A DNA stretch of 32,000 nucleotides, taken from positions 8,603 to 40,602 of the forward strand of contig JAFQHQ010000199.1 of NCBI GenBank assembly GCA_017397885.1, given 5' to 3'. The notes below the pieces were generated by a model. That model saw only the letters and a program-made list of their open reading frames with translations, made no database searches and was not told the DNA's origin. Shown here piece by piece: positions 4,538 to 18,978 of the stretch; position 1 is the stretch's first letter; the number at the start of each line of letters is the position of its first letter. This stretch comes from Clostridia bacterium (lineage in GTDB: Bacteria; Bacillota; Clostridia; UMGS1810). The position numbers were made by a program, and so were the translations under genes.

Positions 4538-4942
4538 TCAAATCTTTATGATTTTGCTTCTTATTTTCGCACGTACATCATCCAAAAAAGAACGCTTTTC
4601 GCCAAAATAGCACTGATTTGCAAAATGTTCACAGTTGTTGTTTAAAATGTTGTATCCTTTTTCACCGACATGGGAAAGAGCCGTTTCAACAATATCACGT
4701 GGACGGCGCCGCCTTTTCTTTTCGTCGCCCTCGCATTCAAGGGTTTCAACAAACTCACCGTTCGAAAAACTTTGAACATCTGCAATCATTACTGCAATAT
4801 CATCGGGCGGAGTGTCACCGTTATCGGGCATACCAAACTCTACGACGGTATTTTCATCAACATAAATTCCATAATGATAATAAAACCTTACCTTAACACG
4901 AATCATATCACCGTATTCGGGGGTTTTTTGAGTCCATTTCAT
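4538..4942 (-). CDS. LRAT/PLAAT (H-RAS-like suppressor, NlpC/P60-related) family Cys-His acyltransferase/phospholipase homologue
   Basis: 134 aa. The His box 'YYHYGIYVD' and the signature 'NCEHFANQC' (catalytic Cys of the NCEHF motif) are both present. No TM segment. The start ATG overlaps the ACP stop as ATGA (4942-4939). Confidence 0.7.
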   Translation of the reverse strand: MKWTQKTPEYGDMIRVKVRFYYHYGIYVDENTVVEFGMPDNGDTPPDDIAVMIADVQSFSNGEFVETLECEGDEKKRRRRPRDIVETALSHVGEKGYNILNNNCEHFANQCYFGEKRSFLDDVRAKIRSKIIKI

Positions 4943-5184
4943 TTTTCCCGCACCTTGCTCTCCACAACATCAATTGCATCCTGAACGGTTTTAATTTTTT
5001 CAAAATCAGAATTGTCGAACCTAATGGAATATTTTTCCTCAAGTGTCATTGCCATATACAAAAATGAGATAGAATTCATTCCTATATCTTTGCGTAAATC
5101 CGATTTTTCACTGAAAGTTGAAACATCAATATCATCACCGAGTACTGCAACAAACATTTCTTTGAGTTCTTCTACCGTTGCCAT
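4939..5184 (-). CDS. Stand-alone acyl carrier protein
   Basis: 81 aa four-helix-type sequence with a phosphopantetheine-site-like 'DIGMNSISFLY' (Ser codon at 5073-5071). Start trimmed to ATG 5184-5182 because GGGGAGGA lies 7 nt upstream. It begins 1 nt after the stop of the upstream gene. Confidence 0.8.
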   Translation of the reverse strand: MATVEELKEMFVAVLGDDIDVSTFSEKSDLRKDIGMNSISFLYMAMTLEEKYSIRFDNSDFEKIKTVQDAIDVVESKVREK

Positions 5185-5185
5185 G

Positions 5186-5851
5186 TTAATTCCTCCCCAT
5201 ATCTTCATATATTTTTCTGCATTCTGTCATTTTTTCAAACACCAAATCGGCATATTCATTTATATTTTTAATGCCTTTTATCTCCCCTGTCCCAAAAGCG
5301 TCAATGGGTTCTCCTATTACCATGCAGTTGCGTTTGTGTGTTTTTGTTTTGCGTGAAACATACACGGGAATGATGGGAACTTTCGCCTGCATTGCCATAA
5401 GAACAATACCCGACTTTATGGATTTCATTTCGTCGTCACGGTTTATGCCCCCCTGCGGAAACAAAGCAAGAACATGCCCTTCTTTAAGAATTGAAACCGT
5501 TTTTCTCATTGACTCTATGTCACAGATATTACGGTCGATTTTTATGCAACCCACACCCTTTAACAAACTGCCCACAATCTTGTTTTCCATAACAACTTCC
5601 GCCGCCAAAAAAAACATTCGTCTGTACCAGAAAAGGCTTCCAAGCAGAAGCGGGTCTTTGAAGCATGTGTGATTTGCCGCAATGATTGCCCCACCTTTGA
5701 TTTTTTGTTTGGCTTTTTCAGAAACAAAAATCTTTTTGATTCTGAAAGCAAGAGGTAACCACATGCACAGCATTCTTGCAAAATCCATCGGAAAATGCCT
5801 TATATCAAAAAGTCTCGGTTTTTTTATCTTTTTGTTGTTATTGCTTTTCAT
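5186..5851 (-). CDS. PlsC/LPLAT-family acyltransferase (copy 2)
   Basis: HX4D motif 'NHTCFKD', 'FPQGG' and 'VPIIPVYV' (LPLAT motifs I, III and IV). The start is uncertain: Met31 at 5851 gives a 14 nt overlap with the upstream LPLAT, and alternatives exist at 5881 and 5941. Confidence 0.75.
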   Translation of the reverse strand: MKSNNNKKIKKPRLFDIRHFPMDFARMLCMWLPLAFRIKKIFVSEKAKQKIKGGAIIAANHTCFKDPLLLGSLFWYRRMFFLAAEVVMENKIVGSLLKGVGCIKIDRNICDIESMRKTVSILKEGHVLALFPQGGINRDDEMKSIKSGIVLMAMQAKVPIIPVYVSRKTKTHKRNCMVIGEPIDAFGTGEIKGIKNINEYADLVFEKMTECRKIYEDMGRN

Positions 5852-6500
5852 TTTTCTTTTCCAATCTTTTTTCGAGTTCATCTTTAAGAGCATAGCTCTT
5901 ATCTTCAAGCATTTTTGTGAGGTTTTTGAGCTCATCATCACTCACATTCTCGCTCTTTACATAATCCCTTAGATAAATCGCTTCGCCAATAATAACATGC
6001 GCTCTCTTAAACAATCCGTAATTACCGTCGGTATAGACAGGAATTATGGGGGCATCGGTACGAAGAGCAATAAGGACTATACCCGGCTTGTAGGGAAAAG
6101 GTTTTCCGCCGACGGGTAGCCTGCCCTGAGGAAATACACCCACACTGCCGCCGCTGTCGAGCACATTGAGACTTTCTTCAACAAAGGAAAAATTGCAGGC
6201 ATCCCTGTCCACAAAAATTCCCCCGATTTTATATAAAAACCATGAGAAAAACTTTCCTTTTTTAAAAAGCACCTCTGCCATAAGAAAGTGGATATTTCTG
6301 AAAAAGAAAACAATCAAATATAACACAAAATCCATAAGTGAAGTGTGATTTGACATAAGAATTGCGTTCCCGGGCAAATTACGCTTTACTTTTTTGTTTT
6401 GTTTATATACCTTGGGCTTAAAAAACAGCAATCCGGGTAATACACCGGTAAGCTTTACAAAGCCCAAAACAAACGAACTCATTTTACTGGTTTTTTTCAT
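5838..6500 (-). CDS. PlsC/LPLAT-family acyltransferase (copy 1)
   Basis: HX4D motif 'NHTSLMD', 'FPQGR' and 'APIIPVY', with a hydrophobic N-terminal segment. The start is 2 nt after the stop of the AMP-ligase gene. Confidence 0.8.
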   Translation of the reverse strand: MKKTSKMSSFVLGFVKLTGVLPGLLFFKPKVYKQNKKVKRNLPGNAILMSNHTSLMDFVLYLIVFFFRNIHFLMAEVLFKKGKFFSWFLYKIGGIFVDRDACNFSFVEESLNVLDSGGSVGVFPQGRLPVGGKPFPYKPGIVLIALRTDAPIIPVYTDGNYGLFKRAHVIIGEAIYLRDYVKSENVSDDELKNLTKMLEDKSYALKDELEKRLEKKNEKQ

Positions 6501-6502
6501 AT

Positions 6503-8413
6503 CTATATATGCCTTTCAATGTATTGACAAATTTCATGAACGGTGTAACACAAAACATCTTTTTCGGATGCCGAAACAGAAAACTCCTCGGCAAGATCCG
6601 TCAAAATCGAAAAATATTGCATGCTGTCGGCTCCCATATCAAGCATAATGTGAGCATGAATATCAATTGATTCAGCATCCGTATTCAGTCTCTTTGCCAC
6701 AATGGACTTAACCTTTGCAAGAATTTCACTGTTGTAGACAGCCTCACTGCAATCCGACAAAACCGCTTTTGTAAAATCATAAATATTAACAGTTTTATCT
6801 GCCAACGCCTTGAGAACATAGGTTCTGCTGATTTTTGCCGCTCCCGGAGATGTGATATTATCTGTTGTATAATAGATTTTTGCCACCCTCGATGTCAAAG
6901 GAAGACTCTCGTTTATGGCAATGATTGTGTCAAGCAATTCATTTCTTTTTGAAACAGACATATATTTTCCGATTTGAACAATCATGGAAACGGTTTTCTT
7001 TCCTTCGTTTTCAATTCCGAGGACACAAAAGTTTTCTGCCTGAGGAAGTGCAAAACACTGTTCAACAACATCGGGGTTGATGTTCTCGCCGTTGTCTCCG
7101 ATAATCGTATCACCATTTCGGCCTTTTACATAATAGTATCCGTCATTTTGAGTTAAGATGTCACCGCTGTCAAAATAGCCATCCATTGACTGCTCCCGGC
7201 CATTTATGAGCATTTTGTCACAAAGCGAATCACCCTTAATCAAAAGAGTGCCTTTGTCACCGATTTCATAGTCAACCGACGCAAAGGGTTTTCCTATGGA
7301 ATTGAGATTTTTGTGTTTGGGACGGGTTCTCAGTTCAACCGACGTTATACCGATTTCGGTCATGCCGTAGCCGTTGTGCAAATTGTACCCTATTGCATTT
7401 ATAAGCTCCAGTGCCGAGCTTCGCACATAGCTTCCGCCGCTTATGCAAAACTTTATGCTTTTGCCAAACAGTTCATCGGTAACTTCGCTCATTATTTTTT
7501 GGGAAAGCTTCATCCCGAGATGCGGAAAAATATTTTGCAAGCCTGTGCAAAGTCTTATACCCCGTTTCAGCTTGGCAAGCTTTTTGTCGCCTGCCTCTTT
7601 TGCCTTTTTCATGACAGAATTTTCAATGGTATGCCACAAAAGCGGAACAGCAAACACATGGGTAACCTCATGTTTTTTGCAGGTTTTCAAAATGGTGTCC
7701 GATGAATAATCTTTCAAAAACACAATTGTAACTCCAAAAAACGAAAACCAAAAATACACAGCAATCAAACCAAAAATGTGATAAAAAGGCAAAAACGCAA
7801 GATTTTTAATTCTGCCATTGTGGTCTGCTGCGATTTCGGGATATTTTTTCATGAATGATTTAACATTTAATATCTGAGACGAAAACCTTTGACCGCTGTA
7901 GAAACAAATTGTCTCTTTCAAAGATGTTCCCGATGTGGAAAGAGCAATTTCGTTTTCAAACTCACCTTCAAAACCTGTCTTCCCCTCAAGTGAATCAATG
8001 TCAATAAACTCTGTATCAAGTTTTGTGTCACCTTTACCCACGGTATATTTTATGCCGAGGGTTTTGAGCGCAGAATTTGCCATTCCGGGAAGCTGCCTGC
8101 AGTTTACAAGATAGGGTTTGTTTCCGCTTCGGAGAATTGCCCAGAAAGCCACAATCCAATCAATGCAATTTTCCATTTCAAGAGCTACAAAGCCATGGGT
8201 TGCACCAATTTTTGCATACAGAGCTTCGGAAGCTGATTCTATTCGTTCTTTAATTTGTTCATATGAGTATGAGCGAATTCTGAAACCGTCCGTATCTTCC
8301 GCCAGCACGCCCGAATTCGCAAACATAACATTAAAAATTGCCTCAAAATCCATTTTGGAATTTTCAAGGACACCTATATTATTGCGAATAATACTTTTAA
8401 TTTTTTTGTTCAT
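6503..8413 (-). CDS. ANL-superfamily AMP-forming acyl ligase fused to a C-terminal carrier (ACP/PCP-like) domain
   Basis: 636 aa. Motifs are 'NGYGMTE' (A5), 'YFDSGDIL' (A7), 'GRNGDTIIGDNGENINPDVVE' (A8) and 'SPGAAKISR' (A10 Lys). Residues about 558-636 form a carrier domain with 'LDMGADSMQYF' (Ser codon at 6625-6623). Confidence 0.85.
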   Translation of the reverse strand: MNKKIKSIIRNNIGVLENSKMDFEAIFNVMFANSGVLAEDTDGFRIRSYSYEQIKERIESASEALYAKIGATHGFVALEMENCIDWIVAFWAILRSGNKPYLVNCRQLPGMANSALKTLGIKYTVGKGDTKLDTEFIDIDSLEGKTGFEGEFENEIALSTSGTSLKETICFYSGQRFSSQILNVKSFMKKYPEIAADHNGRIKNLAFLPFYHIFGLIAVYFWFSFFGVTIVFLKDYSSDTILKTCKKHEVTHVFAVPLLWHTIENSVMKKAKEAGDKKLAKLKRGIRLCTGLQNIFPHLGMKLSQKIMSEVTDELFGKSIKFCISGGSYVRSSALELINAIGYNLHNGYGMTEIGITSVELRTRPKHKNLNSIGKPFASVDYEIGDKGTLLIKGDSLCDKMLINGREQSMDGYFDSGDILTQNDGYYYVKGRNGDTIIGDNGENINPDVVEQCFALPQAENFCVLGIENEGKKTVSMIVQIGKYMSVSKRNELLDTIIAINESLPLTSRVAKIYYTTDNITSPGAAKISRTYVLKALADKTVNIYDFTKAVLSDCSEAVYNSEILAKVKSIVAKRLNTDAESIDIHAHIMLDMGADSMQYFSILTDLAEEFSVSASEKDVLCYTVHEICQYIERHI

Positions 8414-8458
8414 AATTATATCCTCTGGTGTCTGCCGTTAATCGACATATTCTATATA

Positions 8459-8487
8459 AATATAACACAAATCCAAATAAAAAGCAA
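8459..8487 (-). promoter_or_regulatory. sigma-A type promoter candidate for the six-gene acyl operon
   Basis: On the minus strand: TTGCTT (8487-8482), a 17 nt spacer ending in TGT, then TATATT (8464-8459). It lies downstream of two terminators and about 45 nt upstream of ATG 8413 (AGAGGA RBS). Confidence 0.4.
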
Positions 8488-8520
8488 TACGACAGACAGA
8501 TATTTTGAACTTGTTTGAAT

Positions 8521-8541
8521 AAAAAAGCAGGCTGAGCCTGC
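8521..8541 (-). terminator. Rho-independent terminator (second of a tandem pair)
   Basis: GCAGGC/GCCTGC stem (8527-8532 and 8536-8541) followed on the minus strand by T6 (8526-8521). Confidence 0.55.
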
Positions 8542-8611
8542 ACCCTCGTCGCGAGCATAGTTTCACATTCATCTCATCTCGCGAGCGAAATTCGACATAA
8601 ATTCCTATAAA

Positions 8612-8657
8612 ATAAAAAGGGAATGTAAATTAATTTGCTGAATTAATTTACTTTCCC
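8612..8657 (-). terminator. Rho-independent terminator immediately after the zinc-ribbon triad
   Basis: 17 bp AT-rich stem with 1 mismatch (8619-8635 / 8641-8657), a 5 nt loop, then a T5-containing tract on the minus strand (8618-8612). It starts 10 nt after the stop codon of the 8668 gene. Confidence 0.7.
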
Positions 8658-8667
8658 TTTTACTATA

Positions 8668-9273
8668 TTATACAAAGAAAAGCATTACATTGAGAAACAG
8701 TGATAACGCAAACACACCAAGCGAAATAAATGCCGTTATCTTTCCTGCCAAAGCCATACCTCTCAATCTTGAAACGGGCTTACTTGACATGACAATACCC
8801 ACAATTGTGACAGGTAACATGAAGGCTGCCACAACAAGCATTGATATGGCTATCGGAACAGCTTCATATGCATAAGAAACTGTTGAAAGAAAAGCTGCAA
8901 CATAAAGAAGATGATAACCGGAGAGAATGAGACCCAAAATGCCGAAAACCATTCCTACTATTGCTGTGGCTTTTCCGGTCGCAGGTGCCGCTGAAGATGC
9001 AGGGATGATGTGCGATGTAACCTGAGGATGGTATACCGGGGAAGCATCGCTGCAAGATTCGAATGTCTCAACAAAAGTTGCCGCAGGTGTTGAACTAACG
9101 GGAACCTCCGTTTTTTCGGGCAAAGGCTCGGGTGCAGCAAAAGCTTCTGCATTATCAACAGGGACAACAGGTTCACTTACTTCCTCCACAACTTCCGAAA
9201 GTTTTTCACCGCAATTGGGGCAAAAATTGAATTTTTCTTCGTATGTATTTTTACAGTTATCACAAATATACAT
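8668..9273 (-). CDS. Zinc-ribbon plus 3-TM membrane protein, paralogue 1 (DUF4190-like C-terminal region)
   Basis: N-terminal 'MYICDNCKNTYEEKFNFCPNCG' (CxxC...CxxC), an approximately 85 aa P/A/S/E-rich linker, then hydrophobic segments with 'ATAIVGMVFGILGLIL' and 'RLRGMALAGKITAFISLG'. GGAGG lies 7 nt upstream of the ATG. Confidence 0.8.
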   Translation of the reverse strand: MYICDNCKNTYEEKFNFCPNCGEKLSEVVEEVSEPVVPVDNAEAFAAPEPLPEKTEVPVSSTPAATFVETFESCSDASPVYHPQVTSHIIPASSAAPATGKATAIVGMVFGILGLILSGYHLLYVAAFLSTVSYAYEAVPIAISMLVVAAFMLPVTIVGIVMSSKPVSRLRGMALAGKITAFISLGVFALSLFLNVMLFFV

Positions 9274-9302
9274 TTGTATTCCTCCTATGTATCATCAAAA
9301 TC

Positions 9303-9923
9303 TTACAGTCCAAGATAAATGATGAATGCAATTGCATAAACAGCCACCGCAATGAAGCCTGTGATTTTGCCTGCAAGAGCCATGCCACGGCCGTTTTTAG
9401 CTATGAACGAAAGTATGAGTCCGATGATGAGGAAGGGAAGTATGAGGATTGAAAAAACAACCATGAAAACATTTCCGACCGTGTCTACAGCCTCATCTGC
9501 GCTCATGTTAATGTCATCATAGTCATCGTAATCGTAATCATAATCATAATCATCATAATCATGATAACCATTATAGCTGTAATCTTCATCGTAAGTTAAA
9601 GACTCCACAGTGCTTACGCTGATAGATCTCGAGTCAACCTCATCAGCAACCTCAGAGCCGATTGACGTTGCAATCATGCAAATCAACATTACAAATGCGC
9701 AAATAAGTGCCCATATGCCGAAAATCATTCCCATAATAGCAGGTGCTTTACTGCGTTTTGGTTCAAGAGTATCTGCATATACAGGCGCCGAATACGAAGG
9801 TGCACTGTATTCTTTGAATTCCGGTTCGGGAGCGGATGCATGCTCCACAACTTCGCCTCCGCACTGTGAGCAGAACTTTGCGGGAGTTGAATAAGTTTGA
9901 TTACACTTTGTACAAATATACAT
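9303..9923 (-). CDS. Zinc-ribbon plus 3-TM membrane protein, paralogue 2 (with a Asp/Tyr-repeat loop)
   Basis: Start trimmed to 'MYICTKCNQTYSTPAKFCSQCGG' (ATG 9923-9921, GGAGGA upstream). Shares 'APAIMGMIFGIWALI' and 'NGRGMALAGKITGFIA' with its neighbours. The loop between TM1 and TM2 contains YDEDYSYNGYHDYDDYDYDYDYDDYDD. Confidence 0.8.
   Translation of the reverse strand: MYICTKCNQTYSTPAKFCSQCGGEVVEHASAPEPEFKEYSAPSYSAPVYADTLEPKRSKAPAIMGMIFGIWALICAFVMLICMIATSIGSEVADEVDSRSISVSTVESLTYDEDYSYNGYHDYDDYDYDYDYDDYDDINMSADEAVDTVGNVFMVVFSILILPFLIIGLILSFIAKNGRGMALAGKITGFIAVAVYAIAFIIYLGL
9514..9598 (-). repeat. Imperfect tri/hexanucleotide coding repeat (GAT/GAC-TAT/TAC)n encoding the DY-rich loop
   Basis: The plus strand reads ...gtcatcatagtcatcgtaatcgtaatcataatcataatcatcataatcatgataacc... 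Tandem atcgta/atcata units are visible directly. Confidence 0.8.
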
Positions 9924-9951
9924 TTTTATTTCCTCCAAAAAATAATATAAA

Positions 9952-10410
9952 CTATGCTACCATAGCAATAAACCATGTTAAAAGGTTAATTCCCATAGAT
10001 ATGAAGCTTGTTATTTTGCCCGCAACAGCCATTCCACGACCGGCTTTGGCTTTTGAAGCCAAAACAATACCCATGACAATTGCCGGAACAATCAACGCCG
10101 TCACCACCATGAGAGACGGAATTGCATCCGAAAAATCATATAAATAAGAGTCTGACATGTCAACAATTGCAACAAACAAAATAAATGACAACATCACGCT
10201 TGAAATCCCCAAAATCATGCTTACGATTGCAGGGGCAACACTTCCTGTCGGAGAAGTTGACACACCATGCTGTGTACCATATACAGATGCAGAAAAATCA
10301 TTAAATGAATTTTGTGTTACAGATGACTTTTCCACTACCACCCCGCCACACTGTGCGCAAAACTTTGCAGGGGTTGAATAAGATTGATTACATTTTGTAC
10401 AAATATACAT
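9952..10410 (-). CDS. Zinc-ribbon plus 3-TM membrane protein, paralogue 3 (shortest)
   Basis: Start trimmed to 'MYICTKCNQSYSTPAKFCAQCGG' (ATG 10410-10408, AGGAGG 7 nt upstream). Shares 'APAIVSMILGISSVML' and 'AGRGMAVAGKITSFIS'. The upstream 41 codons of the ORF-track call cover the promoter region. Confidence 0.8.
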   Translation of the reverse strand: MYICTKCNQSYSTPAKFCAQCGGVVVEKSSVTQNSFNDFSASVYGTQHGVSTSPTGSVAPAIVSMILGISSVMLSFILFVAIVDMSDSYLYDFSDAIPSLMVVTALIVPAIVMGIVLASKAKAGRGMAVAGKITSFISMGINLLTWFIAMVA

Positions 10411-10445
10411 AATAAACCTCCTGTTATAAAATTTTATACACAAAA

Positions 10446-10474
10446 AGTATATCACACATTGCCAATTATGGCAA
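10446..10474 (-). promoter_or_regulatory. sigma-A type promoter candidate for the zinc-ribbon triad
   Basis: On the minus strand: TTGCCA (10474-10469), a 17 nt spacer containing TGTGA, then TATACT (10451-10446). The -35 element is one arm of the inverted repeat TTGCCA-N4-TGGCAA (10459-10474). Confidence 0.5.
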
Positions 10475-10516: not shown

Positions 10517-11212
10517 TCAAAGGCTAACCACATGCATTATGAATTCTTCAGTTTCGCACTTAATCTTTTCAAACTCTTCCGAAAAAGCATCCACAGCAAA
10601 AAAATCGGTTATTCCTGTGCCTATACACTTAAAATATGCCTCTTTCACCGTCCATATTTCAACAAATCTGCGTGCCTCATCACAGCTTAAATCAAGAGAA
10701 AAATCTTTTTCGAAAGGTTTTTTGCCAAAAACATATTCCATTTCTTTGGGCAAGCAAACCCGCTTTGCAAGATTTGAAGGAAAGCTGCGGATTTTTTCGA
10801 TGTCTATTCCGACTCTTTTGTCCGAAACAGCAACAGCAACCGTGTCTGCACTGTGACTGATATTAAAAAACCAATGTAGATTTTGCGAAAGATGAAGCTT
10901 TCCCTTTTCGTCCGCAACAATTGTAAACTTTTCGGGATCGGACGAGGTTAATTTGCCGAGAAGCTCCCGAACCATCCATTCACCGGCAAGAGTACATTTT
11001 TTTTGAACTTCGCCTCTGAACCGTTTTACCCGTGCTTTGCGCTCATCACACATGGCAAAAAAACTTTTTTTGTATGTTTCATCGGAAAAATCCGAAATAT
11101 TCTTCACTGCATAATATATGTTGCAATCAATCTTTTCAAGATACATATGCACGGCATCACCTTTTGAGAAAACGCCTGCAACGCACTTTTTTTCATCTGC
11201 ATAATCCGACAT
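10517..11212 (-). CDS. Sfp-type 4'-phosphopantetheinyl transferase
   Basis: 'FNISHSADTVAVAV', 'VGIDIEKI' and 'WTVKEAYFKCIG' are the three PPTase signature motifs. Start trimmed to ATG 11212-11210, with AAGGAGGG 5 nt upstream. Confidence 0.85.
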   Translation of the reverse strand: MSDYADEKKCVAGVFSKGDAVHMYLEKIDCNIYYAVKNISDFSDETYKKSFFAMCDERKARVKRFRGEVQKKCTLAGEWMVRELLGKLTSSDPEKFTIVADEKGKLHLSQNLHWFFNISHSADTVAVAVSDKRVGIDIEKIRSFPSNLAKRVCLPKEMEYVFGKKPFEKDFSLDLSCDEARRFVEIWTVKEAYFKCIGTGITDFFAVDAFSEEFEKIKCETEEFIMHVVSL

Positions 11213-11272: not shown

Positions 11273-12271
11273 TTATGTGTTTGGCTCTTTTGTGCAAAAA
11301 AATTCAACAAGAGTGTCAACATATTCTTTAAGCAGTGCATCGTTTACCGTGTACAGGCAATGCTTTGCACCACGAAATACTTTGTATTCGCACTTTAAAA
11401 GCTTTGCAAGCTTTTTTTGCGGTTTAACTTTTACGGAATTATCTTTTTCGGCACTGATTATAAGAACCTTTGCACCGATGTTTTTCATCCTGTTTTTACA
11501 TAGCAGTTTTTCAATCACGGTTATTGCTTCGTAATTCCAACGGTTTGTGCCGTATGAGTTTTGATAATTCGCATTTTTAATTCGCAAATCAAGATTATAT
11601 TTAAATCGGTTCTCACTGATGTCATTGCTTTGTTCAAGCTTTGCATTGGGGTTAAAATCCGACGTGAACTTAAATCTTGCATTCCAGCCGTTTTTCCGTG
11701 CTTCACCCTTCATAAGTTTTTTCAAAACAAATCTGGGAAATGGCGGAGTTTTCGGATAAACCATCGGCGAAGAAAGAACGGCTTTCTTAATCTTATTTTT
11801 GAAATTTGAAAGATAAAGCCCGGCAATTGCACCGCCCATGGAATGAGAATAAATATACACGGGAGCATTTTCGCAGTTTGGCTCAACAACCTGATTTATA
11901 AAACAATCCAGATCACGGGCATAATCTTCAAAGCTGTCCGCATGAGTTATTTGCGTGTTTTTGCTGTAGCGATGTGAGTTTCCGTGACAACGCACATCAT
12001 AGAGAAAAACATTGTAGCCCATGAGCATGAAATACCACGAAAGCTCATAATACTTTTTGGTAAACTCGGTGTAGCCGTGAATGACAACAATGTTGGCAAT
12101 GGGGTTTTCCACCTTAAAAAACTCATAGTACATCCGTGTTTTGTCAAAAGAAGTGAAGAAACCGCTTTGAACATAACTCTTGAGAGTTTTATTAAGTTCA
12201 TCCATTTTCTCAAAATATTCGGTTTCGTTGATGATTTCGTATTTGTATTCAGGTTTAAATAACACAGCCAA
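11273..12271 (-). CDS. Alpha/beta hydrolase, lysophospholipase / monoacylglycerol-lipase-like
   Basis: 'VVIHGYTEFTKKYYELSWYFMLMGYNVFLYDVRCHGNS' plus the nucleophile elbow 'YSHSMGG', a pattern typical of PldB/MGL-like (COG2267-type) hydrolases. The start is either TTG at 12271 or GTG at 12265, behind AAAGGAG. Confidence 0.65.
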   Translation of the reverse strand: MAVLFKPEYKYEIINETEYFEKMDELNKTLKSYVQSGFFTSFDKTRMYYEFFKVENPIANIVVIHGYTEFTKKYYELSWYFMLMGYNVFLYDVRCHGNSHRYSKNTQITHADSFEDYARDLDCFINQVVEPNCENAPVYIYSHSMGGAIAGLYLSNFKNKIKKAVLSSPMVYPKTPPFPRFVLKKLMKGEARKNGWNARFKFTSDFNPNAKLEQSNDISENRFKYNLDLRIKNANYQNSYGTNRWNYEAITVIEKLLCKNRMKNIGAKVLIISAEKDNSVKVKPQKKLAKLLKCEYKVFRGAKHCLYTVNDALLKEYVDTLVEFFCTKEPNT

Positions 12272-12312
12272 ATAGCTCCTTTAGTATAAAATTGGTAACA
12301 GAGGTGATAATA

Positions 12313-13269
12313 GTGGTATCTTCGAAGAAGAAATTGATGAAAAAGATATTAAAAGGTATTGCCATAACTATTATTATCTATATTACCCTGTCACTTGTAT
12401 CTACAAAAATAATTTATGATTCGGTTTTTCGCCACTACAGTGCAAAAGAACCCCAAAGTATTATATCCGAAAATGCACAAATGATGAAAATGCGAAAACA
12501 GTTTTCATACCCTTGTGAAAACGGCTCTCTTACAGGTCACCTTTACTATGCACCCCAATGCAAACAAGGTCTGATTGTGCTTGTGCCGGGTTTTCGTGCC
12601 GAAAGCATAGAATATGAAGGTGTGATAAACGCCCTTACAAACAAGGGCTTTGATGTTTTTGCTTTCAATCCCACCGGTCACGGCAAAGGCTCAAAGGGCA
12701 GCTCTGTGGGATATGCACAAATAATAAAAGATGTAAACTCAACGCTGAATTTTATTGACAAAAGCGAAATGTTTTTGTATGATAATATTTATCTTTTGGG
12801 TCACAGCCGCGGGGGCTACGGTATTTGCTGTGCCATGAACGGTCATGGGAGCATTGATGCCGCAGTTTGCATAAATTCGACCGACACATCAATGGATGCC
12901 ATTATGGCATATTCAACCGAATATGCAGGAAATGCCGCCTATGCCAATTATCCGTTTTTGAGCATGTATGAAAGTATTCTTTTCGGTTCGGATTTGTCTT
13001 CAAGTTCAGCAGTCAGACATATAAACAAATCGGACATTCCGATTTTTGTTATTCAAGCCCAAAATGATGAACACATCTCAAAAGACAAATATTCGCTGTA
13101 TTCAAAAATGGATGAGATAACCTCGAAAAAAGCCGAATTTTTGCTGTATAACAAAAACGGAAGCGACGGACACACATCCATCCTTTATGATAAAAACCGC
13201 ATTGCCAACCAAGACATAATTGACACCATAGTTTCATTCTACGAAAAATATTCAAACGAAAAGGAGTGA
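12313..13269 (+). CDS. Membrane-anchored alpha/beta hydrolase
   Basis: N-terminal K-rich segment and TM helix (KKILKGIAITIIIYITLSLV), nucleophile elbow 'LLGHSRGG', and a late 'NDEHI'/'DGHTS' Asp/His region. The start is uncertain: GTG 12313 lies behind AGAGGTG, ATG 12337 is also possible, and the ORF track gives TTG 12292. Confidence 0.65.
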   Translation: MVSSKKKLMKKILKGIAITIIIYITLSLVSTKIIYDSVFRHYSAKEPQSIISENAQMMKMRKQFSYPCENGSLTGHLYYAPQCKQGLIVLVPGFRAESIEYEGVINALTNKGFDVFAFNPTGHGKGSKGSSVGYAQIIKDVNSTLNFIDKSEMFLYDNIYLLGHSRGGYGICCAMNGHGSIDAAVCINSTDTSMDAIMAYSTEYAGNAAYANYPFLSMYESILFGSDLSSSSAVRHINKSDIPIFVIQAQNDEHISKDKYSLYSKMDEITSKKAEFLLYNKNGSDGHTSILYDKNRIANQDIIDTIVSFYEKYSNEKE

Positions 13270-13273
13270 TGAA

Positions 13274-14311
13274 ATGAAAAATATGGTAATTATTCCTGCA
13301 TATAAACCAAATAAAGAACTCATCACTCTTGTGGAAGAGCTTCATGGTGAGGGGGTCGGAATTGTTGTTGTAGATGACGGAAGCGGTCCGGAATATGGCA
13401 GCATTTTCGAAGCCATAACCGAAAAAGCAAAAATTGTTACCATTGTGTGCAATGCAGGGAAAGGCACCGCCCTCAAAACAGGCATGCAAACCCTCATAAA
13501 CGAATTTCCGGACTGCGAAAACTTTGTTACGGCAGACGCTGACGGTCAGCACAAAACAGCCGACATTATGCGTGTTTTCAACGAACTTGAAAGAGGTGCC
13601 GAATTTGTTTTGACAGTGCGAAAGTTCAGAGATAACATGCCTTTCAGATCGAAATTCGGAAACGCACTTTCAAGATGGATTTACACAATTTTAAACGGAC
13701 ACTATCTTGTTGACAATCAATCGGGGCTTCGCGGTTTTTTGTCAAAACACCTTAAATGGCTCGTAAAAGTGGGCGGATACAAATATGATTACGAAATGAA
13801 TGTGCTATATTATGCCGACAAGCAAGGCGTTCAGATTACCACCATACCAATTGAAGCCATATACATAGACAACAATTCGTCATCTCACTTTAATCCCGTA
13901 AAAGATACCTTCCGCATATATACACGTCTCTTTTACAGTGCAAGAATTACATTTGCCGCGTGGCTTCTCATTGAGCAGATGCTGATTTATGTTTCTGTTG
14001 TGTGGGGATATATCAATATGTACATAACCATTCCGACAATCGGCGCAACCGGGGTTGCATTCACCATAACACTAAACAAGTTTGTTGTGTTTAGAGGCTA
14101 CGCTTACAAAGATTTTTTGCGAACCATCATATACACTGTTTTAAGGTATTCGGTCTATACAATAGGATTAACCATATTCAAATTTAATCTGCCGTGGGTT
14201 CCGCTGTTTTTCTCGTTCAATCTCATTGTCATATTGATGATTCCGGCAGAATACTTCGTGCATAAGTTTTTGTATTTGTCAAAGTATAATGATATAATTA
14301 AAGATCGATGA
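13274..14311 (+). CDS. Family 2 glycosyltransferase with a C-terminal GtrA-like multi-TM region
   Basis: 'VIIPAYKPNKELITLVEEL...VVVDDGSG...TADADGQH' is a GT2 (GT-A fold, DxD) pattern. The C-terminal approximately 120 aa holds 4 hydrophobic helices including 'TLNKFVVFRG' (GtrA-like). AAGGAG RBS. The start is 4 nt after the previous gene. Confidence 0.75.
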   Translation: MKNMVIIPAYKPNKELITLVEELHGEGVGIVVVDDGSGPEYGSIFEAITEKAKIVTIVCNAGKGTALKTGMQTLINEFPDCENFVTADADGQHKTADIMRVFNELERGAEFVLTVRKFRDNMPFRSKFGNALSRWIYTILNGHYLVDNQSGLRGFLSKHLKWLVKVGGYKYDYEMNVLYYADKQGVQITTIPIEAIYIDNNSSSHFNPVKDTFRIYTRLFYSARITFAAWLLIEQMLIYVSVVWGYINMYITIPTIGATGVAFTITLNKFVVFRGYAYKDFLRTIIYTVLRYSVYTIGLTIFKFNLPWVPLFFSFNLIVILMIPAEYFVHKFLYLSKYNDIIKDR

Positions 14312-14331
14312 CAAAAAATTTATTAACTATT

Positions 14332-14355
14332 AAAGGGGCTCAAAAGCCCCTTTTT
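14332..14355. terminator. Bidirectional rho-independent terminator
   Basis: AAA, then GGGGCT, a CAAA loop, AGCCCC, then T5. It lies between the convergent GT2 (+) and plsX (-) genes. Confidence 0.7.
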
Positions 14356-14362
14356 GTTATAT

Positions 14363-15337
14363 TTAACAAAGTGCATTATGAATACGGTTGGAAAGATCGC
14401 CACTATCAAGAGTGAGTGCCAATTTTACACATTCATAAGCAGTTTTTTCATTGGCACACCCGTGCATTTTTACCACGGGTTTTTTTGCGCCCAAAAAAGT
14501 TGCACCTCCAAGATCGTTAAAGGCAAACATGGAGTGAAGAGCATTTTTCAGCTTGTCGTGAACCTCTGTTCCCGAGGCAAGCTCATCAACAATTTCGATT
14601 GCCGCCATGCCGGCAGCCTCGGTATTTTTAAGAAGCACATTTCCGGTAAATCCGTCGGTAACAACAACATCTGCCGGAGAATTCACAAGATGAGTGCCTT
14701 CGATATTTCCGATAAAATTTATGGGAAGCTTTTCGATGAGAGCATATGCCTCTTTTACAAGTGCGTTTCCCTTGTGAGGGGACTGACCTACCGACATCAA
14801 TGCCACCTTTGGTGACTCAATCCCCGCAAGACTTTGCATATAGGCATTGCCCATCAGCGCAAAATTTTTGAGGTCTTCACTTTTGCAATCGGTGTTTGCA
14901 CCGCAATCCACAAGACACACAAGTCCGTCTTTTTTACACGGAATTGCAGTTGCCAAAACAGGCGACATCAGCCCCTTAACCAATCCAAGTCTGCATATTG
15001 TACCCACAAGGAGTGCCCCTGTGTTGCCTGCGCAAATCATTGCACATGCATCAACATCATCTCTGAGCTTTTCAAGAGACATAACCATTGACGTGTCGTC
15101 TCCGCCTCTGAAAACGCAGGTGGGAAGATCGGAATCCGCAACAAAACTCTTTGTATGAAGAATCTCTATGCGGTCAAAACCAAAGCCCCGACTGCAAACA
15201 ATTTTTTCGATTTCGGATTTATCTCCCGCAAAAACAACCGAAAAATCATCCCTTTCAGCCATAGCATTCAAAACTCCGCAAACTATTGGGAAACAGCCAT
15301 TGTCCGACCCAAGAGTGTCCACAATCAACTTTTTCAT
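14363..15337 (-). CDS. plsX: Phosphate acyltransferase PlsX (acyl-ACP:phosphate transacylase)
   Basis: Collinear with canonical PlsX: 'CAGNTGAL', 'VDCGAN', 'NFIGNIEG', 'DVVVTDGFTGNVLLK' and 'KMHG'. The N-terminal motif is 'DTLGSDNG' instead of the usual 'DAMGGDxAP'. Confidence 0.85.
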   Translation of the reverse strand: MKKLIVDTLGSDNGCFPIVCGVLNAMAERDDFSVVFAGDKSEIEKIVCSRGFGFDRIEILHTKSFVADSDLPTCVFRGGDDTSMVMSLEKLRDDVDACAMICAGNTGALLVGTICRLGLVKGLMSPVLATAIPCKKDGLVCLVDCGANTDCKSEDLKNFALMGNAYMQSLAGIESPKVALMSVGQSPHKGNALVKEAYALIEKLPINFIGNIEGTHLVNSPADVVVTDGFTGNVLLKNTEAAGMAAIEIVDELASGTEVHDKLKNALHSMFAFNDLGGATFLGAKKPVVKMHGCANEKTAYECVKLALTLDSGDLSNRIHNALC

Positions 15338-15352
15338 AAAACCATCTTTCTG

Positions 15353-16990
15353 CTATTCAATAGCCATGTAATAATCATATATTTTTTGCTTTCCGGAAAC
15401 GGCACCGCACTCAAAATGAGAAAACTCATCTTCGATTGCCTCTATCAGACCGTCTGCTTCTTCGTCGCTGACATTTTCACCATAAAAAACTGTGATAACC
15501 GATTTTTCGTCAATGTCTTCAAAACTGCGAAGCAAGCCGACAACAGCACTGTTTTTATCCTCTGACACAAAACGGATTTTCCCGTCCGCAATAGCCATAT
15601 ATTCTCCTTCTTTTACGCATACTCCGTCTATTGTTGCATCACGAACAGCTTTTGTGATGCTCACCGAAACAACAGAAGAAAGAGCCATTTCCATGTCTGA
15701 AACAAAGGAATCTATGTCAGGTGCCCAGGTGTTCATCATGGAAAGTGCCGAATAGCCCTCGGCAACGGATTTTGTTTCCAGAACTCTTATGTCACATTTA
15801 TCATACATGCCGGCAGCCTGTTTTGCAGTTGCATATATGTTTGAGTTGTTTGGCAAAACAACGATATGCTCAGCAAAAAGCGAATCAAAAGCATCAAGAA
15901 AATCATGCGCCGAAGGATTGTTAGTCTGACCGCCGTCTATTATTCGGTCTGCTCCTATTTGAGCAAAATAGTCTTTTATGCCGTCGCCCATTGCAACGGT
16001 AACAATTGCATACTTAACTTTTTCGGTTTCTTTTTCAACGGAAGAAGAAACCTCACTGTGCTGAATGGACATATTTTCTATTTTAACAGATATAAATTCA
16101 CCGTAATTTCTGGCAAAAGCCAAAGCTTTTTCAGGCTTGAATGTGTGAACATGAGCCTTAACTATATCTTCATCCAAAACTGCAACAATTGAATCACCTA
16201 TGGTCTGAAGATATGAAATGAACTCTTTTATGGAAAATGCCGCTATGTTTGTTTTGGCATGCATGAGCTGAAGCACAAACTCCGTGCAATAACCATACTC
16301 CAAAACGCTGTCGGGTCCGAAACTGCTGTTTGTCAAAACATTCACATTGCTTTCACGTTCGCTTCCGACTTCAATGATTTCGCCGTCAAGATATGCACAC
16401 ATGCCCTCAATGATGTACAAAATTCCCATTCCGCCGCTATCTACAACATTTGCCTGTTTTAAAACCGGCAACAGCTCGGGAGTATGCTGAAGACTTTTGT
16501 TCATATTCATAAATATATAAGCAAAAGCATCTTTAAAATCCGAAAAATCGCCTGCGCTCTCAAGAGACTCACAGGGCTCGCGAAGAACAGTGAGCATTGT
16601 ACCCTCAACAGGATTCGGAACGGCACTGTAGGCACAGTCCACCCCTTGTCTCATCATGTCTTTAATGTCGGACACATCAATATCATCTTTTGTGCGCAGT
16701 GCATTTGCCCATCCTCGTATAAACTGTGAAAGAATGACACCCGAGTTCCCTCTGGCTGAGAGCAAAACGTTTCTCGAAAACTCCGACATCATTGAAGAAA
16801 CTGTTTCGAAATCTTCCACGCTCTTTAAAATCCCTCCGCCGAGAGTTTTCACCATATTTGTTCCGGTGTCGCCATCGGGAACGGGAAACACGTTCAAATC
16901 ATTCACCTTTGTTTCCATAAGGCACAAATTTCTGTATCCGTTGACAAGCATACCATACAAAGAATTTGCATCAAGTCTCGCTTTGTTCAT
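15353..16990 (-). CDS. fakA: DAK2-domain fatty acid kinase subunit FakA (YloV-like)
   Basis: 545 aa. The N-terminal Dak2 domain has 'LNVFPVPDGDTGTNM' and 'ARGNSGVILSQF', followed by the YloV-type middle and C-terminal domains. It sits directly downstream of two DegV genes. Confidence 0.85.
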   Translation of the reverse strand: MNKARLDANSLYGMLVNGYRNLCLMETKVNDLNVFPVPDGDTGTNMVKTLGGGILKSVEDFETVSSMMSEFSRNVLLSARGNSGVILSQFIRGWANALRTKDDIDVSDIKDMMRQGVDCAYSAVPNPVEGTMLTVLREPCESLESAGDFSDFKDAFAYIFMNMNKSLQHTPELLPVLKQANVVDSGGMGILYIIEGMCAYLDGEIIEVGSERESNVNVLTNSSFGPDSVLEYGYCTEFVLQLMHAKTNIAAFSIKEFISYLQTIGDSIVAVLDEDIVKAHVHTFKPEKALAFARNYGEFISVKIENMSIQHSEVSSSVEKETEKVKYAIVTVAMGDGIKDYFAQIGADRIIDGGQTNNPSAHDFLDAFDSLFAEHIVVLPNNSNIYATAKQAAGMYDKCDIRVLETKSVAEGYSALSMMNTWAPDIDSFVSDMEMALSSVVSVSITKAVRDATIDGVCVKEGEYMAIADGKIRFVSEDKNSAVVGLLRSFEDIDEKSVITVFYGENVSDEEADGLIEAIEDEFSHFECGAVSGKQKIYDYYMAIE

Positions 16991-16993
16991 TGT

Positions 16994-17884
16994 CTATTCA
17001 TTTCCTCCGATAGTTACCTCTTTGCCGTAGCAAAATGATATAATTGTTCCGGGACCAACACATGACCCCACAATCGGACCTATTGTTCCGATGATAACAT
17101 TTTTAAAGGAAATAAGTTTTAAAATCTCATCGCGGAGTTTATGAGCATCTTCAAGACAGTCGGCATGAGAAATAAGAAGCGTATCTTTATCATTTTCATC
17201 AACAATTTCCGCCATTTTTTCGGCAATGCGCCGTTTGGCATTTGCCGCACCCTTAACCTTTTCAACAGCAAGGTTTTGACCGGTTTTGTCGGAAATAATG
17301 ATTGGTTTTATGCCAAACATATTGCCAAAAAAAGCACTTGACGCCTTGACTCTGCCTGCCCGTTTGAGATATTTAAGGTCGTCGGTTGTACCAAACTGAT
17401 TAAAACAGAGTTTGTTTTTTTCAATGTATGAAGCAACATCATCCAAAGATTTCCCTTCTGCTCTCATCATTGAAGCACGAATAAGCATATATCCCTGCCC
17501 CAGAGAACTGCAAAGCGAATCTATGCAAACAACTTTTCTGCCGGGGAATTCGGCTTCAAGCTCTTTTGCTATGATGACGGCAAGATTTACAGATCCCGAA
17601 AGAGCAGACGAGCATGCAATGTAGAGAACATCTTCTCCTTTTTCGAGATAACTTCTGAATTTGTTTATAAATTCTTCGCGCGGGACCTGAGTTGTAAGAA
17701 TTCTCTTTCCGCCGCGCATCATGTCATAGAACTCATGGGAACCGTGATTTTCCCAGTCGAGAGAAGCGTCATATTCCGCTCCGTCGACAACATAGTTCAT
17801 GCGGACATAGTCAATTTCATATTTTTCTCTTATTTCTTTGTCCAGATCGGAAGTTGAGTCTGCAATAACAGCAAATCGGCTCAT
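16994..17884 (-). CDS. fakB: DegV-family fatty-acid-binding protein (FakB-type)
   Basis: 296 aa. 'FAVIADSTSDL' N-terminus, 'TTQVP...' and 'SSALSGS' are typical of DegV. There is a 3 nt gap to fakA. Confidence 0.8.
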   Translation of the reverse strand: MSRFAVIADSTSDLDKEIREKYEIDYVRMNYVVDGAEYDASLDWENHGSHEFYDMMRGGKRILTTQVPREEFINKFRSYLEKGEDVLYIACSSALSGSVNLAVIIAKELEAEFPGRKVVCIDSLCSSLGQGYMLIRASMMRAEGKSLDDVASYIEKNKLCFNQFGTTDDLKYLKRAGRVKASSAFFGNMFGIKPIIISDKTGQNLAVEKVKGAANAKRRIAEKMAEIVDENDKDTLLISHADCLEDAHKLRDEILKLISFKNVIIGTIGPIVGSCVGPGTIISFCYGKEVTIGGNE

Positions 17885-17886
17885 TA

Positions 17887-18837: not shown

Positions 18838-18871
18838 GTATTTAATCCCCCCTATATCTTAACATGCCTTG

Positions 18872-18900
18872 AGTATACCATAACAAGCAAAAAAATTCAA
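18872..18900 (-). promoter_or_regulatory. sigma-A type promoter candidate for the fakB-fakB-fakA-plsX operon
   Basis: On the minus strand: TTGAAT (18900-18895), a 17 nt spacer, then TATACT (18877-18872), about 35 nt upstream of ATG 18837. Confidence 0.5.
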
Positions 18901-18940
18901 CACAAAATGACAAAAAAGTAGTGCATTCTTCAACAAGATG

Positions 18941-18949
18941 TGTTATAAT
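18941..18949 (+). promoter_or_regulatory. Extended -10 promoter candidate (TGtTATAAT) for the + strand hydrolase operon
   Basis: TGTTATAAT lies about 30 nt upstream of ATG 18979 (GGAGG RBS at 18967-18971). The -35 element is poor. Confidence 0.35.
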
Positions 18950-18978
18950 AGCCTTAATTTGTTTCGGAGGTAACTTGT

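Follow-up and report, generated by a model that had tools for sequence, protein, structure and literature searches.

Three tandem genes in a 32-kb stretch of Clostridia DNA (32,000 nucleotides in all, the window) encode small membrane proteins with an N-terminal zinc ribbon. Genes of this kind lie 5' of the same acyl operon in every close relative examined, and their products are therefore probably membrane partners of the lipid pathway. The reading that we prefer, with a probability of about 45%, is that the triad would make abundant accessory proteins of the membrane that partner the adjacent acyl system on its cytoplasmic side.

Genes and protein family

The triad comprises g1 (9952..10410; 152 aa), g2 (9303..9923; 206 aa) and g3 (8668..9273; 201 aa), all on the minus strand and with lengths in agreement with the gene calls on the source contig. 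Two of the three products have “hypothetical protein” as their sole name, including that of g1, which is identical to P0001 from an NCBI metagenome-assembled genome; the product of g2 is identical to P0002, named “DUF4190 domain-containing protein” at NCBI. BLASTP aligned g1 with g2 at E=3e-35 and with g3 at E=7e-22, and pairwise identity within the triad was 41-46% over the aligned columns. Judged by these similarities, the three genes are paralogous far beyond chance, and the original prediction of three related genes of these lengths on the minus strand was borne out. All three proteins start with MYIC(T/D)(K/N)C...FC.(Q/N)CG and have the motif (G/L)RGMA(L/V)AGKIT.FI in common, with linkers of about 36, 36 and 77 aa between the ribbon and the membrane part. 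No zinc-ribbon multi-helix ORF other than those of the triad was found in the window. An exhaustive profile search retrieved 890 relatives at E<1e-3, and most of the 150 matches listed were 140-245 aa long and covered the profile from end to end; a single-sequence word-index search with g1 recovered only g1 itself.

The ribbon cysteines are C4, C7, C18 and C21, all invariant in 45-50 family members. A CxxC-N12-CxxC ribbon had been predicted; the ribbon is present in all three proteins, but the spacing is CxxC-N10-CxxC. AlphaFold placed short strands at ribbon residues 2-4 and 24-27, with pLDDT values of 80-87. The reference set for this domain was Pfam Zn_Ribbon_1 (PF13240), Zn_ribbon_3 (PF13248) and DZR (PF12773), with a pair of CxxC knuckles on either side of a short spacer as the defining feature. 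The triad proteins have this two-knuckle C4 arrangement, and zinc binding is predicted for them. Their scores against PF13240 (18.9 for g1, 21.3 for g2 and 17.0 for g3) lie below the Pfam cut-off of 25, as does the score of g3 against PF13248 (22.7, cut-off 27), and 37 of 45 family members matched PF13240 at E<0.01 (4e-8 for the best). At the DNA level, the 206-aa and 152-aa genes match over 89 nt at the ribbon codons, with 82% identity. This is the likeness earlier ascribed to “paralogues 2 and 3”, a numbering that holds only along the plus strand.

Membrane topology and relationship to DUF4190

Hydropathy analysis identified three hydrophobic segments in each triad protein, and the AlphaFold models of g1 and g3 (pLDDT 82.9 and 73.2, respectively) both show a ribbon joined by a disordered tether to three helices. 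The check on topology and structure that had been proposed for these proteins thus gave three transmembrane helices by hydropathy in g1-g3, in agreement with the models of g1 and g3. In g1, the ribbon occupies residues 1-27 and the tether residues 28-58, followed by helices at 59-87, 93-120 and 125-151; g2 has the same layout, with the addition of an acidic, Tyr-rich outer loop of about 55 aa between helices 1 and 2, and g3 has a zinc ribbon, a disordered tether of about 77 aa and helices at 101-131, 135-163 and 171-200. All three are small cytoplasmic-membrane proteins with a C4 ribbon, a disordered tether rich in Pro, Tyr and Ala (36-77 residues) and a three-helix bundle. By the positive-inside rule, the ribbon and the K/R-rich loop joining helices 2 and 3 would be cytoplasmic, whereas the C-terminus and the acidic, Tyr-rich loop that joins helices 1 and 2 would be extracellular.

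The best conserved parts were the ribbon and, in each of the three helices, the half that lies in the inner leaflet (mean pairwise BLOSUM62 2.0-2.8), with values of only 0.4-1.1 for the outer helix halves and the outer loop. This profile, together with the family alignment, supported the expectation that the zinc ribbon and membrane core are constant and that the linker and loop diverge fast.

The membrane part had also been described as resembling DUF4190 (PF13828). Direct scores were below the Pfam cut-off of 35 (15.8 bits for g1, or 17.7 for its membrane part alone, 11.0 for g2 and no match for g3), but hhalign aligned the close-clade membrane modules with PF13828-positive relatives, a comparison set itself recovered with the profile of the triad family, over 78 columns (97.9% probability, E 3.3e-13), with a GMA.AG motif common to both. 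The NCBI name of g2 points in the same direction, and by profile comparison the membrane module is a divergent relative of DUF4190. Foldseek searches against the PDB yielded nothing (best E = 3). A sequence match in the PDB to 7qhm_J, an unnamed membrane subunit of a Corynebacterium respiratory supercomplex (E 0.13), was discarded, as it was lost when the membrane module was used alone.

Expression signals

The triad is preceded by a candidate promoter (10446..10474, minus strand) consisting of TTGCCA, a 17-nt spacer and the extended -10 element TGnTATACT. The pattern cTTGnnn-17-TGnTAtAAT was found before the first zinc-ribbon gene in nine of nine loci aligned, each of which also has an AGGAGG site. 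On the minus strand, the ribosome-binding sites are AGGAGG for g1 (10422-10417), GGAGG for g2 (9936-9932) and AGGAGG for g3 (9286-9281), and the intergenic gaps, calculated from the coordinates, are 28 and 29 nt. Two terminators follow g3 on the same strand: a hairpin with 21-nt arms and the T-run TTTTTATTTTAT (8607..8661), and GCAGGCTCAGCCTGC with the T-run TTTTTTATT (8518..8541). The promoter, strong GGAGG sites, near-equal gaps and double terminator that had been predicted for the triad can therefore all be assigned coordinates. A hairpin and T-run occupy the same gap before FAAL-ACP in eight of nine related loci examined, and a terminator lies ahead of FAAL-ACP in nine of the ten close-clade loci defined below. 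The near-consensus promoter, the AGGAGG site and the terminator before FAAL-ACP fit with a triad product made above the level of the enzymes. With its own promoter and terminators, the zinc-ribbon unit is not strictly co-transcribed with the acyl operon.

Between the second terminator and FAAL-ACP lies a conserved box, ATATTTATATAGAATATGTCGA (8442..8463, minus strand), with similar boxes in L002, L005 and L008. It may be either the promoter and transcription-start region of the acyl operon itself or an operator. No match was obtained in the window with Rfam at gathering thresholds.

Linkage to the acyl operon

The operon begins with FAAL-ACP (6503..8413, minus strand, 636 aa), in which AMP-binding and phosphopantetheine carrier domains are fused. 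On the same strand are two LPLAT-type acyltransferases (5838..6500, 220 aa; 5186..5851, 221 aa according to the source-contig call), a stand-alone acyl carrier protein (4939..5184, 81 aa; L001 15227-15472 converted to window coordinates) and an LRAT/PLAAT-like acyltransferase with an NNNCEHF motif (4538..4942, 134 aa). A gene for an Sfp-type phosphopantetheinyl transferase (PPTase; 10517..11212, minus strand) lies directly upstream of the triad. The island as a whole contains FAAL-ACP, two LPLATs, ACP and LRAT, surrounded by PPTase, FakA, DegV and hydrolases. It is widespread (284 LRAT-probe matches) and merits study as an uncharacterised unit of fatty-acid activation and acyl transfer.

In all ten close-clade loci (the window, L099, L002, L003, L005, L008, L011, L013, L028 and L101), FAAL-ACP is directly preceded on its 5' side by one to three zinc-ribbon membrane genes of the same strand. 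Two of these loci have three copies, one has two and seven have one (at least one for L101); these loci share ancestry, and the counts are therefore not independent events. L099 again contains the same three-gene array, so the array is conserved in a relative, a point on which the original prediction had been made to depend. In the eight loci measured, FAAL-ACP identity was 50-92%, versus 27-49% for the zinc-ribbon proteins. The outer neighbor of the zinc-ribbon unit varies (PPTase, a ClpB-like AAA protein, ferritin, a glycosidase or double-zinc-ribbon proteins). The description of the triad as inserted inside the lipid locus was not upheld, as it is the slot beside FAAL-ACP that is conserved and the PPTase neighbor that changes; the zinc-ribbon slot 5' of FAAL-ACP is ancestral, and the triad is not an insertion.

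The placement differs in other lineages. In L011, L013, L022, L056, L060 and L076, a gene of the zinc-ribbon multi-helix type starts no more than 62 nt after LRAT, the longest reading frames overlapping LRAT in L056 and L076, and in still other lineages one to four copies in tandem follow FakA and an alpha/beta hydrolase at the far end of the island. A metagenome scan used an LRAT probe, which is independent of the zinc ribbon, and the best 80 of 284 matches were fetched. Within this set, operon-bearing loci contained 21 zinc-ribbon multi-helix ORFs in 462 kb, versus none in 100 kb of LRAT-only loci. No zinc-ribbon gene was within reach in six of 18 long operon-bearing loci (L023, L033, L039, L040, L044 and L091). 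Family members also occur in unrelated contexts: one in L012 lies by pyrimidine genes although it shares 63% identity with the operon-linked copy of L013, a tandem pair in L015 lies beside MscL, and a member in L017 is found among glycosidases. A search for related loci with a tighter family alignment retrieved one locus from the genome collection and none from the metagenome collection. As to whether the triad is linked to the lipid pathway or is an unrelated module, the evidence favors the link, the FAAL junction being kept in ten of ten close-clade loci; some distant operons lack the gene, and some family members are found elsewhere.

The LRAT proteins of about 340 aa encoded in distant operons were considered as candidate fusions to the zinc-ribbon or membrane module, but the extra part is an Sfp-type PPTase, and no fusion of this module to any enzyme of the acyl system was found.

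Divergence and copy number

The triad had been proposed to be a locally amplified family. Copy number does vary from one to three, but g3 is closest to P0006, which occupies the last slot in the L099 triad (52% identity over the core), and the split between g1 and g2 is old, with saturated synonymous sites. A ratio of dN/dS in core versus loop is not meaningful with such saturation. Recent gene conversion between g1 and g2, whose ribbon codons have 84% DNA identity, was rejected: third positions at conserved residues match at only 14 of 23 sites in the ribbon and 15 of 34 in the three helix and loop regions, which points to old copies under protein-level constraint.

The outer loops and tails include hypervariable low-complexity stretches, such as a DY repeat in g2 and a Tyr-rich C-terminal tail in L011. 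In g2, an imperfect GAT/TAT codon repeat (9513..9560, minus strand) encodes DYDDYDYDYDYDDYDD in the outer loop, and loops rich in Tyr, Ser and Asp recur in many members, as in SYSYYYYSPSYD of L005.

Proposed role and alternative interpretations

As an accessory partner, each triad protein would be anchored in the inner leaflet by its helix bundle, and the ribbon on its tether would capture or organise soluble carrier and acyl-transfer proteins at their lipid substrates. The partner system would comprise the Sfp-type PPTase, FAAL-ACP, the two LPLAT acyltransferases, ACP and the LRAT-like acyltransferase, and copies differing in tether and outer loop could serve different partners or conditions. 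A stronger version, that the triad proteins are dedicated subunits of an undescribed lipid-acylation machine of gut/rumen-type Clostridia, acting as a membrane dock or an acyl-accepting shuttle, is unlikely; if true, it would provide the first functional assignment for a common, uncharacterised class of zinc-ribbon and DUF4190 proteins. Small N-terminal zinc-ribbon membrane proteins are very common in Firmicutes, and no known role was found for any relative. In the literature searched, we found no description of the zinc-ribbon/DUF4190 architecture, the family, the operon type or their association, DUF4190 itself being scarcely mentioned. A subfamily fixed beside one enzyme system is a concrete and testable handle on the function of the class. 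If the link is one of inherited gene order only, three ordinary hypothetical membrane proteins remain.

This last possibility belongs to an interpretation that we consider somewhat improbable, in which the triad proteins are generic, abundant zinc-ribbon/DUF4190 envelope proteins involved in membrane organisation or surface decoration, their adjacency to the operon would reflect inherited order or shared regulation, and their outer loops would vary under phage or host pressure. The many contexts of the wider family (L012, L015 and L017), the separate promoter and terminators of the unit, the hypervariable, low-complexity outer loops and tails and the operon versions lacking a zinc-ribbon gene are all consistent with such proteins. 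Inherited order accounts less well for a FAAL-ACP junction kept in all ten loci, down to 50% FAAL identity and despite a changing outer neighbor, for the independent placements directly after LRAT and at the distal island edge, or for the enrichment of operon-bearing over LRAT-only loci. The conserved residues, moreover, are on the cytoplasmic side and not outside. PADLOC anti-phage defence models gave no match at E<0.01 for g1, g2 or g3.

Two further interpretations are doubtful. DltX is reportedly a small membrane protein with a C-terminal motif that serves as a transient acyl carrier, and it has been described as an acyl shuttle and connector (PMC13653941). By analogy, Tyr or Ser residues of the outer loop, tether or tail of the triad proteins could be acylated, transiently or stably, by LPLAT or LRAT. 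The logic of the operon is similar (an adenylating enzyme, a carrier protein and acyltransferases, with the zinc-ribbon genes leading), the signals suggest a product exceeding the enzymes in amount, and the outer loops of many members are rich in Tyr, Ser and Asp. However, the locus has no MBOAT or other membrane-spanning acyltransferase for outward acyl transfer, no outer-loop residue is conserved, the loops of L011, L013 and L028 lack Tyr, and the proteins have no sequence relation to DltX and differ from it in helix number. A membrane-tethered sensor or regulator of lipid state controlling the adjacent operon is just as doubtful. The unit is immediately upstream of the operon, with the conserved box separating terminator from FAAL-ACP, and pairings of single-helix zinc-ribbon proteins with lipid-related genes have been described among the multi-component associations of Lipocone proteins (PMC12419801). 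Specific DNA binding would nonetheless be unlikely for a ribbon of 22 residues that lacks any other cytoplasmic domain, neither a transcription factor nor a sigma factor was found nearby, and a set of one to three strongly signalled, divergent copies is unlike a low-abundance regulator. Finally, although all Pfam and NCBIfam matches fall below curated cut-offs, the notion that g1-g3 are chance ORFs or mis-annotations is refuted by their significant paralogy, their hundreds of full-length relatives, confident structure models and the presence of a promoter, ribosome-binding sites and terminators.

Comparison with known systems

For the neighboring operon, as distinct from the triad, the nearest match is provided by Aas-type systems (E. 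coli Aas; NCBIfam PRK08633 and PRK08043). Both LPLATs of the window have matches among acyl-[ACP]--phospholipid O-acyltransferase models and the ligase bears a fused carrier domain, a combination that suggests activation of free fatty acids and their transfer to lipid acceptors. The scores are, however, far below the equivalog cut-offs, and the system of the window is split into separate proteins and further includes an LRAT/PLAAT-like enzyme, an additional ACP, a PPTase of its own and the zinc-ribbon membrane proteins.

The comparison with DltX is one of mechanism and not of ancestry: DltX is a small membrane protein implicated in the Dlt machinery for D-alanylation of teichoic acids, alongside the adenylating DltA, the carrier DltC and the acyltransferase DltB. 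DltX has about 50 aa and no zinc ribbon, whereas the triad proteins have 152-206 aa and three helices; it works with the MBOAT DltB and the extracellular DltD, and no MBOAT or DltD-like gene is present at the triad locus. The features by which a DltX-like protein would be recognised (a length of about 50 aa, a conserved C-terminal acceptor motif and an MBOAT partner) are thus not those of the triad.

Among known domain families, DUF4064 (PF13273) shows weak matches over the helix region in seven of 45 family members. Within the triad, g2 scored 21.1 bits (E 3.8e-4), below the cut-off of 32.1, g1 and g3 gave no match, and the DUF4064 model contains no zinc ribbon. The likeness to proteins combining PF13240 and PF13828 extends over the whole architecture: an N-terminal CxxC...CxxC ribbon, a low-complexity tether, a helix bundle rich in Gly and small residues and a K..G(M)A.AG motif. 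Precomputed annotations of both domains are found on the more distant matches to the family profile. The triad differs from these proteins in having an expanded loop of about 5-55 aa, in place of a tight hairpin, to connect helices 1 and 2, and in that its subfamily occupies a fixed position beside the FAAL-ACP operon.

Three paralogous zinc-ribbon membrane proteins

The triad consists of three consecutive minus-strand genes, g1 (10410..9952, 152 aa), g2 (9923..9303, 206 aa) and g3 (9273..8668, 201 aa), separated by gaps of 28 and 29 nt, as near-identical as the original prediction held. A mechanical ORF list places the starts of g1 and g2 further upstream, but the MYIC starts are correct, because AGGAGG/GGAGG sites precede them, the gene calls of the source contig agree and every relative starts likewise. 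The predicted paralogy was confirmed by BLASTP (E=3e-35 for g1 vs g2, 7e-22 for g1 vs g3). All three N-termini read MYIC..C, then FC..CG, with the ribbon cysteines at positions 4, 7, 18 and 21; the spacer is therefore 10 residues long, rather than the 12 initially counted. Hydropathy identified three hydrophobic segments per protein. AlphaFold models from 50-sequence alignments were alike for g1 (pLDDT 82.9; helices 59-87, 93-120 and 125-151) and g3 (pLDDT 73.2; helices 101-131, 135-163 and 171-200): in each, a small ribbon leads through a disordered stretch into three long helices. Extreme Asp/Tyr low-complexity stretches, predicted to lie outside the membrane, were found in the g2 outer loop (DYDDYDYDYDYDDYDD, window 9513-9560) and in the C-terminal tail of a protein from a related locus, L011 (YEPNYYGSYYNDYNYYNYY, 8001-8582).

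No triad protein matched Pfam or NCBIfam above the cut-offs. The highest Pfam scores reached were 17-23 bits on zinc-ribbon models, where 25-27 are required, 15.8 on DUF4190, which requires 35, and 21.1 on DUF4064, which requires 32.1. When g1 was the query, a word-index search returned nothing but g1 itself, from a Clostridia MAG. An exhaustive search with a profile of all three paralogues identified 890 proteins at E<1e-3; among the 150 matches listed, most were 140-245 aa long and aligned to the profile over their full length. These relatives have a common layout of ribbon, Pro/Tyr/Gln/Ala-rich tether and helices, in which the first helix opens with 'SKAPAI.GM.FGI', the second closes with 'P..IVGL.MS.K' and the third opens with 'KGM.IAGKI'; the outer loop is variable and often rich in Tyr and acidic residues. 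Precomputed annotations of more distant members include PF13240 and PF13828 (DUF4190), the NCBI name for g2 is 'DUF4190 domain-containing protein', and profile-profile comparison of the membrane modules only gave a probability of 97.9% (E 3e-13). On these grounds, the triad is related, at some divergence, to the zinc-ribbon + DUF4190 class, the DUF4190 resemblance originally proposed being below the Pfam cut-off, yet recovered by profile-profile comparison. Structure and sequence comparison found no solved structure resembling the triad proteins, defence-system models gave no match to them and no Rfam family matched anywhere in the window. We know of no function for the zinc-ribbon + DUF4190 architecture, and literature searches found no paper on it or on this operon type. 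The same ribbon type (YVC.NC...Y.EP.KFC..CG) occurs in soluble proteins, in up to seven tandem copies (P0009, 432 aa); in L011, the membrane-bound protein is immediately preceded by two soluble ones with multiple ribbons (6850-7155 and 7168-7836).

A conserved slot upstream of FAAL-ACP

The triad is preceded by an Sfp-type PPTase gene and followed by FAAL-ACP (an AMP-binding and carrier domain fusion), two LPLAT acyltransferases, an 81-aa ACP, an LRAT/PLAAT-like enzyme bearing an NNNCEHF motif, and a MATE transporter. Beyond the PPTase lie two alpha/beta hydrolases, a GT2 glycosyltransferase, PlsX, FakA and two DegV (FakB-like) genes, forming a wider lipid island (11273-19962) whose gene set recurs, in changed order, around the operon in L011, L013 and L055. 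From the genomic context of family members, we found the place directly 5' of FAAL-ACP to be taken by one to three same-strand zinc-ribbon/three-helix genes in ten distinct loci, the window included: three copies in the window and in L099 (147, 178 and 206 aa), two in L002, one each in L003, L005, L008, L011, L013 and L028, and at least one in L101. The L099 FAAL-ACP is 68% identical to that of the window. Over the eight loci where identity was measured, FAAL-ACP was 50-92% and LRAT 49-90% identical, and the zinc-ribbon proteins just 27-49%. The outer neighbour varies (PPTase, ClpB-like AAA protein, ferritin, glycosidase or double-zinc-ribbon proteins), and the junction retained is that between the zinc-ribbon unit and FAAL-ACP; the triad is thus not 'inserted' into the lipid locus, as first described, but occupies a conserved slot. 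In L003, ~1.8 kb (8544-10312) comes between the zinc-ribbon gene and FAAL-ACP, comprising AT-rich non-coding sequence plus ORFs for two unrelated small membrane proteins (61 and 163 aa); this stretch may have been inserted into a junction that is otherwise tight.

LRAT was also used as a metagenome probe, to avoid selection on the zinc ribbon, and the loci of its best 80 hits, out of 284, were annotated with HMMs. Long operon-bearing loci contained at least one zinc-ribbon multi-helix ORF in 12 of 18 cases and none within reach in the other six (21 such ORFs in 462 kb of operon-bearing loci), and LRAT-only loci contained none (n=6, 100 kb), these being counts over loci of common ancestry and hence not independent events. 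Among close operon versions, the 5' gene was found again in L028. A zinc-ribbon multi-helix gene also begins no more than 62 nt after LRAT in several other lineages, namely L011 (12510-12986), L013 (9791-10189), L022 (1002-1580), L056 (581-988), L060 (1453-1907) and L076 (5817-6209), the longest reading frames overlapping the LRAT end in L056 and L076. This zinc-ribbon membrane protein is of a second kind, with an 'EEDLPEQY(K/R)PLGAW.YFGL' motif in L011 and L013; in the window, the position is occupied by the MATE transporter instead.

In a distant clade of operons, FAAL scores are lower, an adenylating enzyme is added and LRAT is fused to PPTase. No zinc-ribbon gene lies directly 5' of these operons. 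Located 4.6-8.4 kb downstream instead are DUF4190-type zinc-ribbon genes, single or in tandem arrays of up to four, that score weakly on the Pfam DUF4190 model; in L055 they come after DegV, MFS, FakA and hydrolase genes, on the outer border of the same island. The fusion ORFs (~335-350 aa; L035, L040, L044, L046, L050, L057, L062, L063, L077, L097 and others) carry the Sfp-type part C-terminally, with GVD.E and WT.KES.FK motifs. This fusion is an argument for counting the PPTase, encoded on its own immediately upstream of the triad in the window, as part of the acyl system. The extra stand-alone AMP-binding enzyme (in L055, 502 aa, 8229-9737, between the second LPLAT and ACP) suggests that a second acid is activated in the distant versions.

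Expression signals and history of the copies

As predicted, the triad has its own promoter, a near-consensus extended -10 (10474..10446, minus strand), and a double terminator 3' of g3, with hairpins and T-runs at 8661..8607 and 8541..8518 (minus strand). A promoter of this type and AGGAGG preceded the first zinc-ribbon gene in all nine loci aligned (L101 was left out, its contig beginning too near the gene), and a strong hairpin terminator separated the last zinc-ribbon gene from FAAL-ACP in nine of 10. The consistency of these signals suggests that the unit, although always adjoining the operon, is expressed separately and probably strongly. The gap from the terminator to the start of FAAL-ACP contains a conserved box, ATATTT(A/G)TA..A(A/T)TATGTCGA (8442-8463, minus strand), and similar boxes occur in this gap in L002, L005 and L008. 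The box may represent the -10 and transcription-start region of the operon itself or serve some regulator as its operator.

The g1 and g2 genes are mutual nearest relatives, the first two L099 genes likewise pair together, and the closest relative of g3 is P0006, the last gene of the L099 triad (52% over the core). These pairings point to an old split between the g3-type and the rest, followed by duplication or homogenization of the upstream copies. The 'locally amplified' of the original description holds only in part. The predicted DNA-level similarity over the ribbon codons of two paralogues was found between g2 and g1 (89 nt at 82%). Third positions of conserved g1/g2 residues matched at 14 of 23 sites in the ribbon vs 15 of 34 across three regions of helix and loop. 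Synonymous positions are thus near saturation even within the ribbon, whose similarity reflects constraint on the protein, not recent gene conversion; a dN/dS test is uninformative here.

Conservation, topology and possible function

Each of the three helices is conserved in its inner half, as is the ribbon (mean pairwise BLOSUM62 2.0-2.8; positions include K58, A61, I62, G64, M65, G68, P109, G114, S118, K120, M127 and G131), and the outer halves and outer loop are not (0.4-1.1), in agreement with the constant core and variable loop originally envisaged. Given Lys/Arg residues ahead of helix 1 and in the helix 2-3 loop, and an acidic helix 1-2 loop, the ribbon would lie in the cytoplasm, as inferred from sequence. 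FAAL-ACP, ACP and the 134-aa LRAT-like enzyme appear to be soluble and the LPLATs peripheral, so the simplest model is that the triad proteins are a membrane dock for the acyl system, to which we assign a probability of about 0.45: the helix bundle would occupy the inner leaflet, and the ribbon, on its tether, would keep a carrier or enzyme near the lipid substrate. The looser claim, that they are functionally tied to this system somehow, is somewhat more probable. The suggested lipid-pathway link is upheld by the junction kept in the window and nine loci, with a mechanism that is inferred.

A general envelope protein kept beside the operon through gene order is a less likely explanation. Family members adjoin unrelated genes in L012, L015 and L017, the L012 protein being 63% identical to an operon-linked copy. 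A sensor or regulator is improbable. An acyl shuttle or acceptor resembling DltX, the small membrane protein that carries the acyl group in the Dlt machinery, of which an adenylating enzyme, carrier protein and acyltransferase are also part (PMC13653941), can be given equally little weight: the window locus has no MBOAT, and no outer residue is conserved in the triad family.

As far as checked, the fixed association of zinc-ribbon proteins with the FAAL-ACP/LPLAT/LRAT system, their variation in copy number from one to three genes and the conservation pattern facing the cytoplasm are new. The proteins themselves are a divergent variant of the zinc-ribbon + DUF4190 architecture, set apart by a longer helix 1-2 loop.
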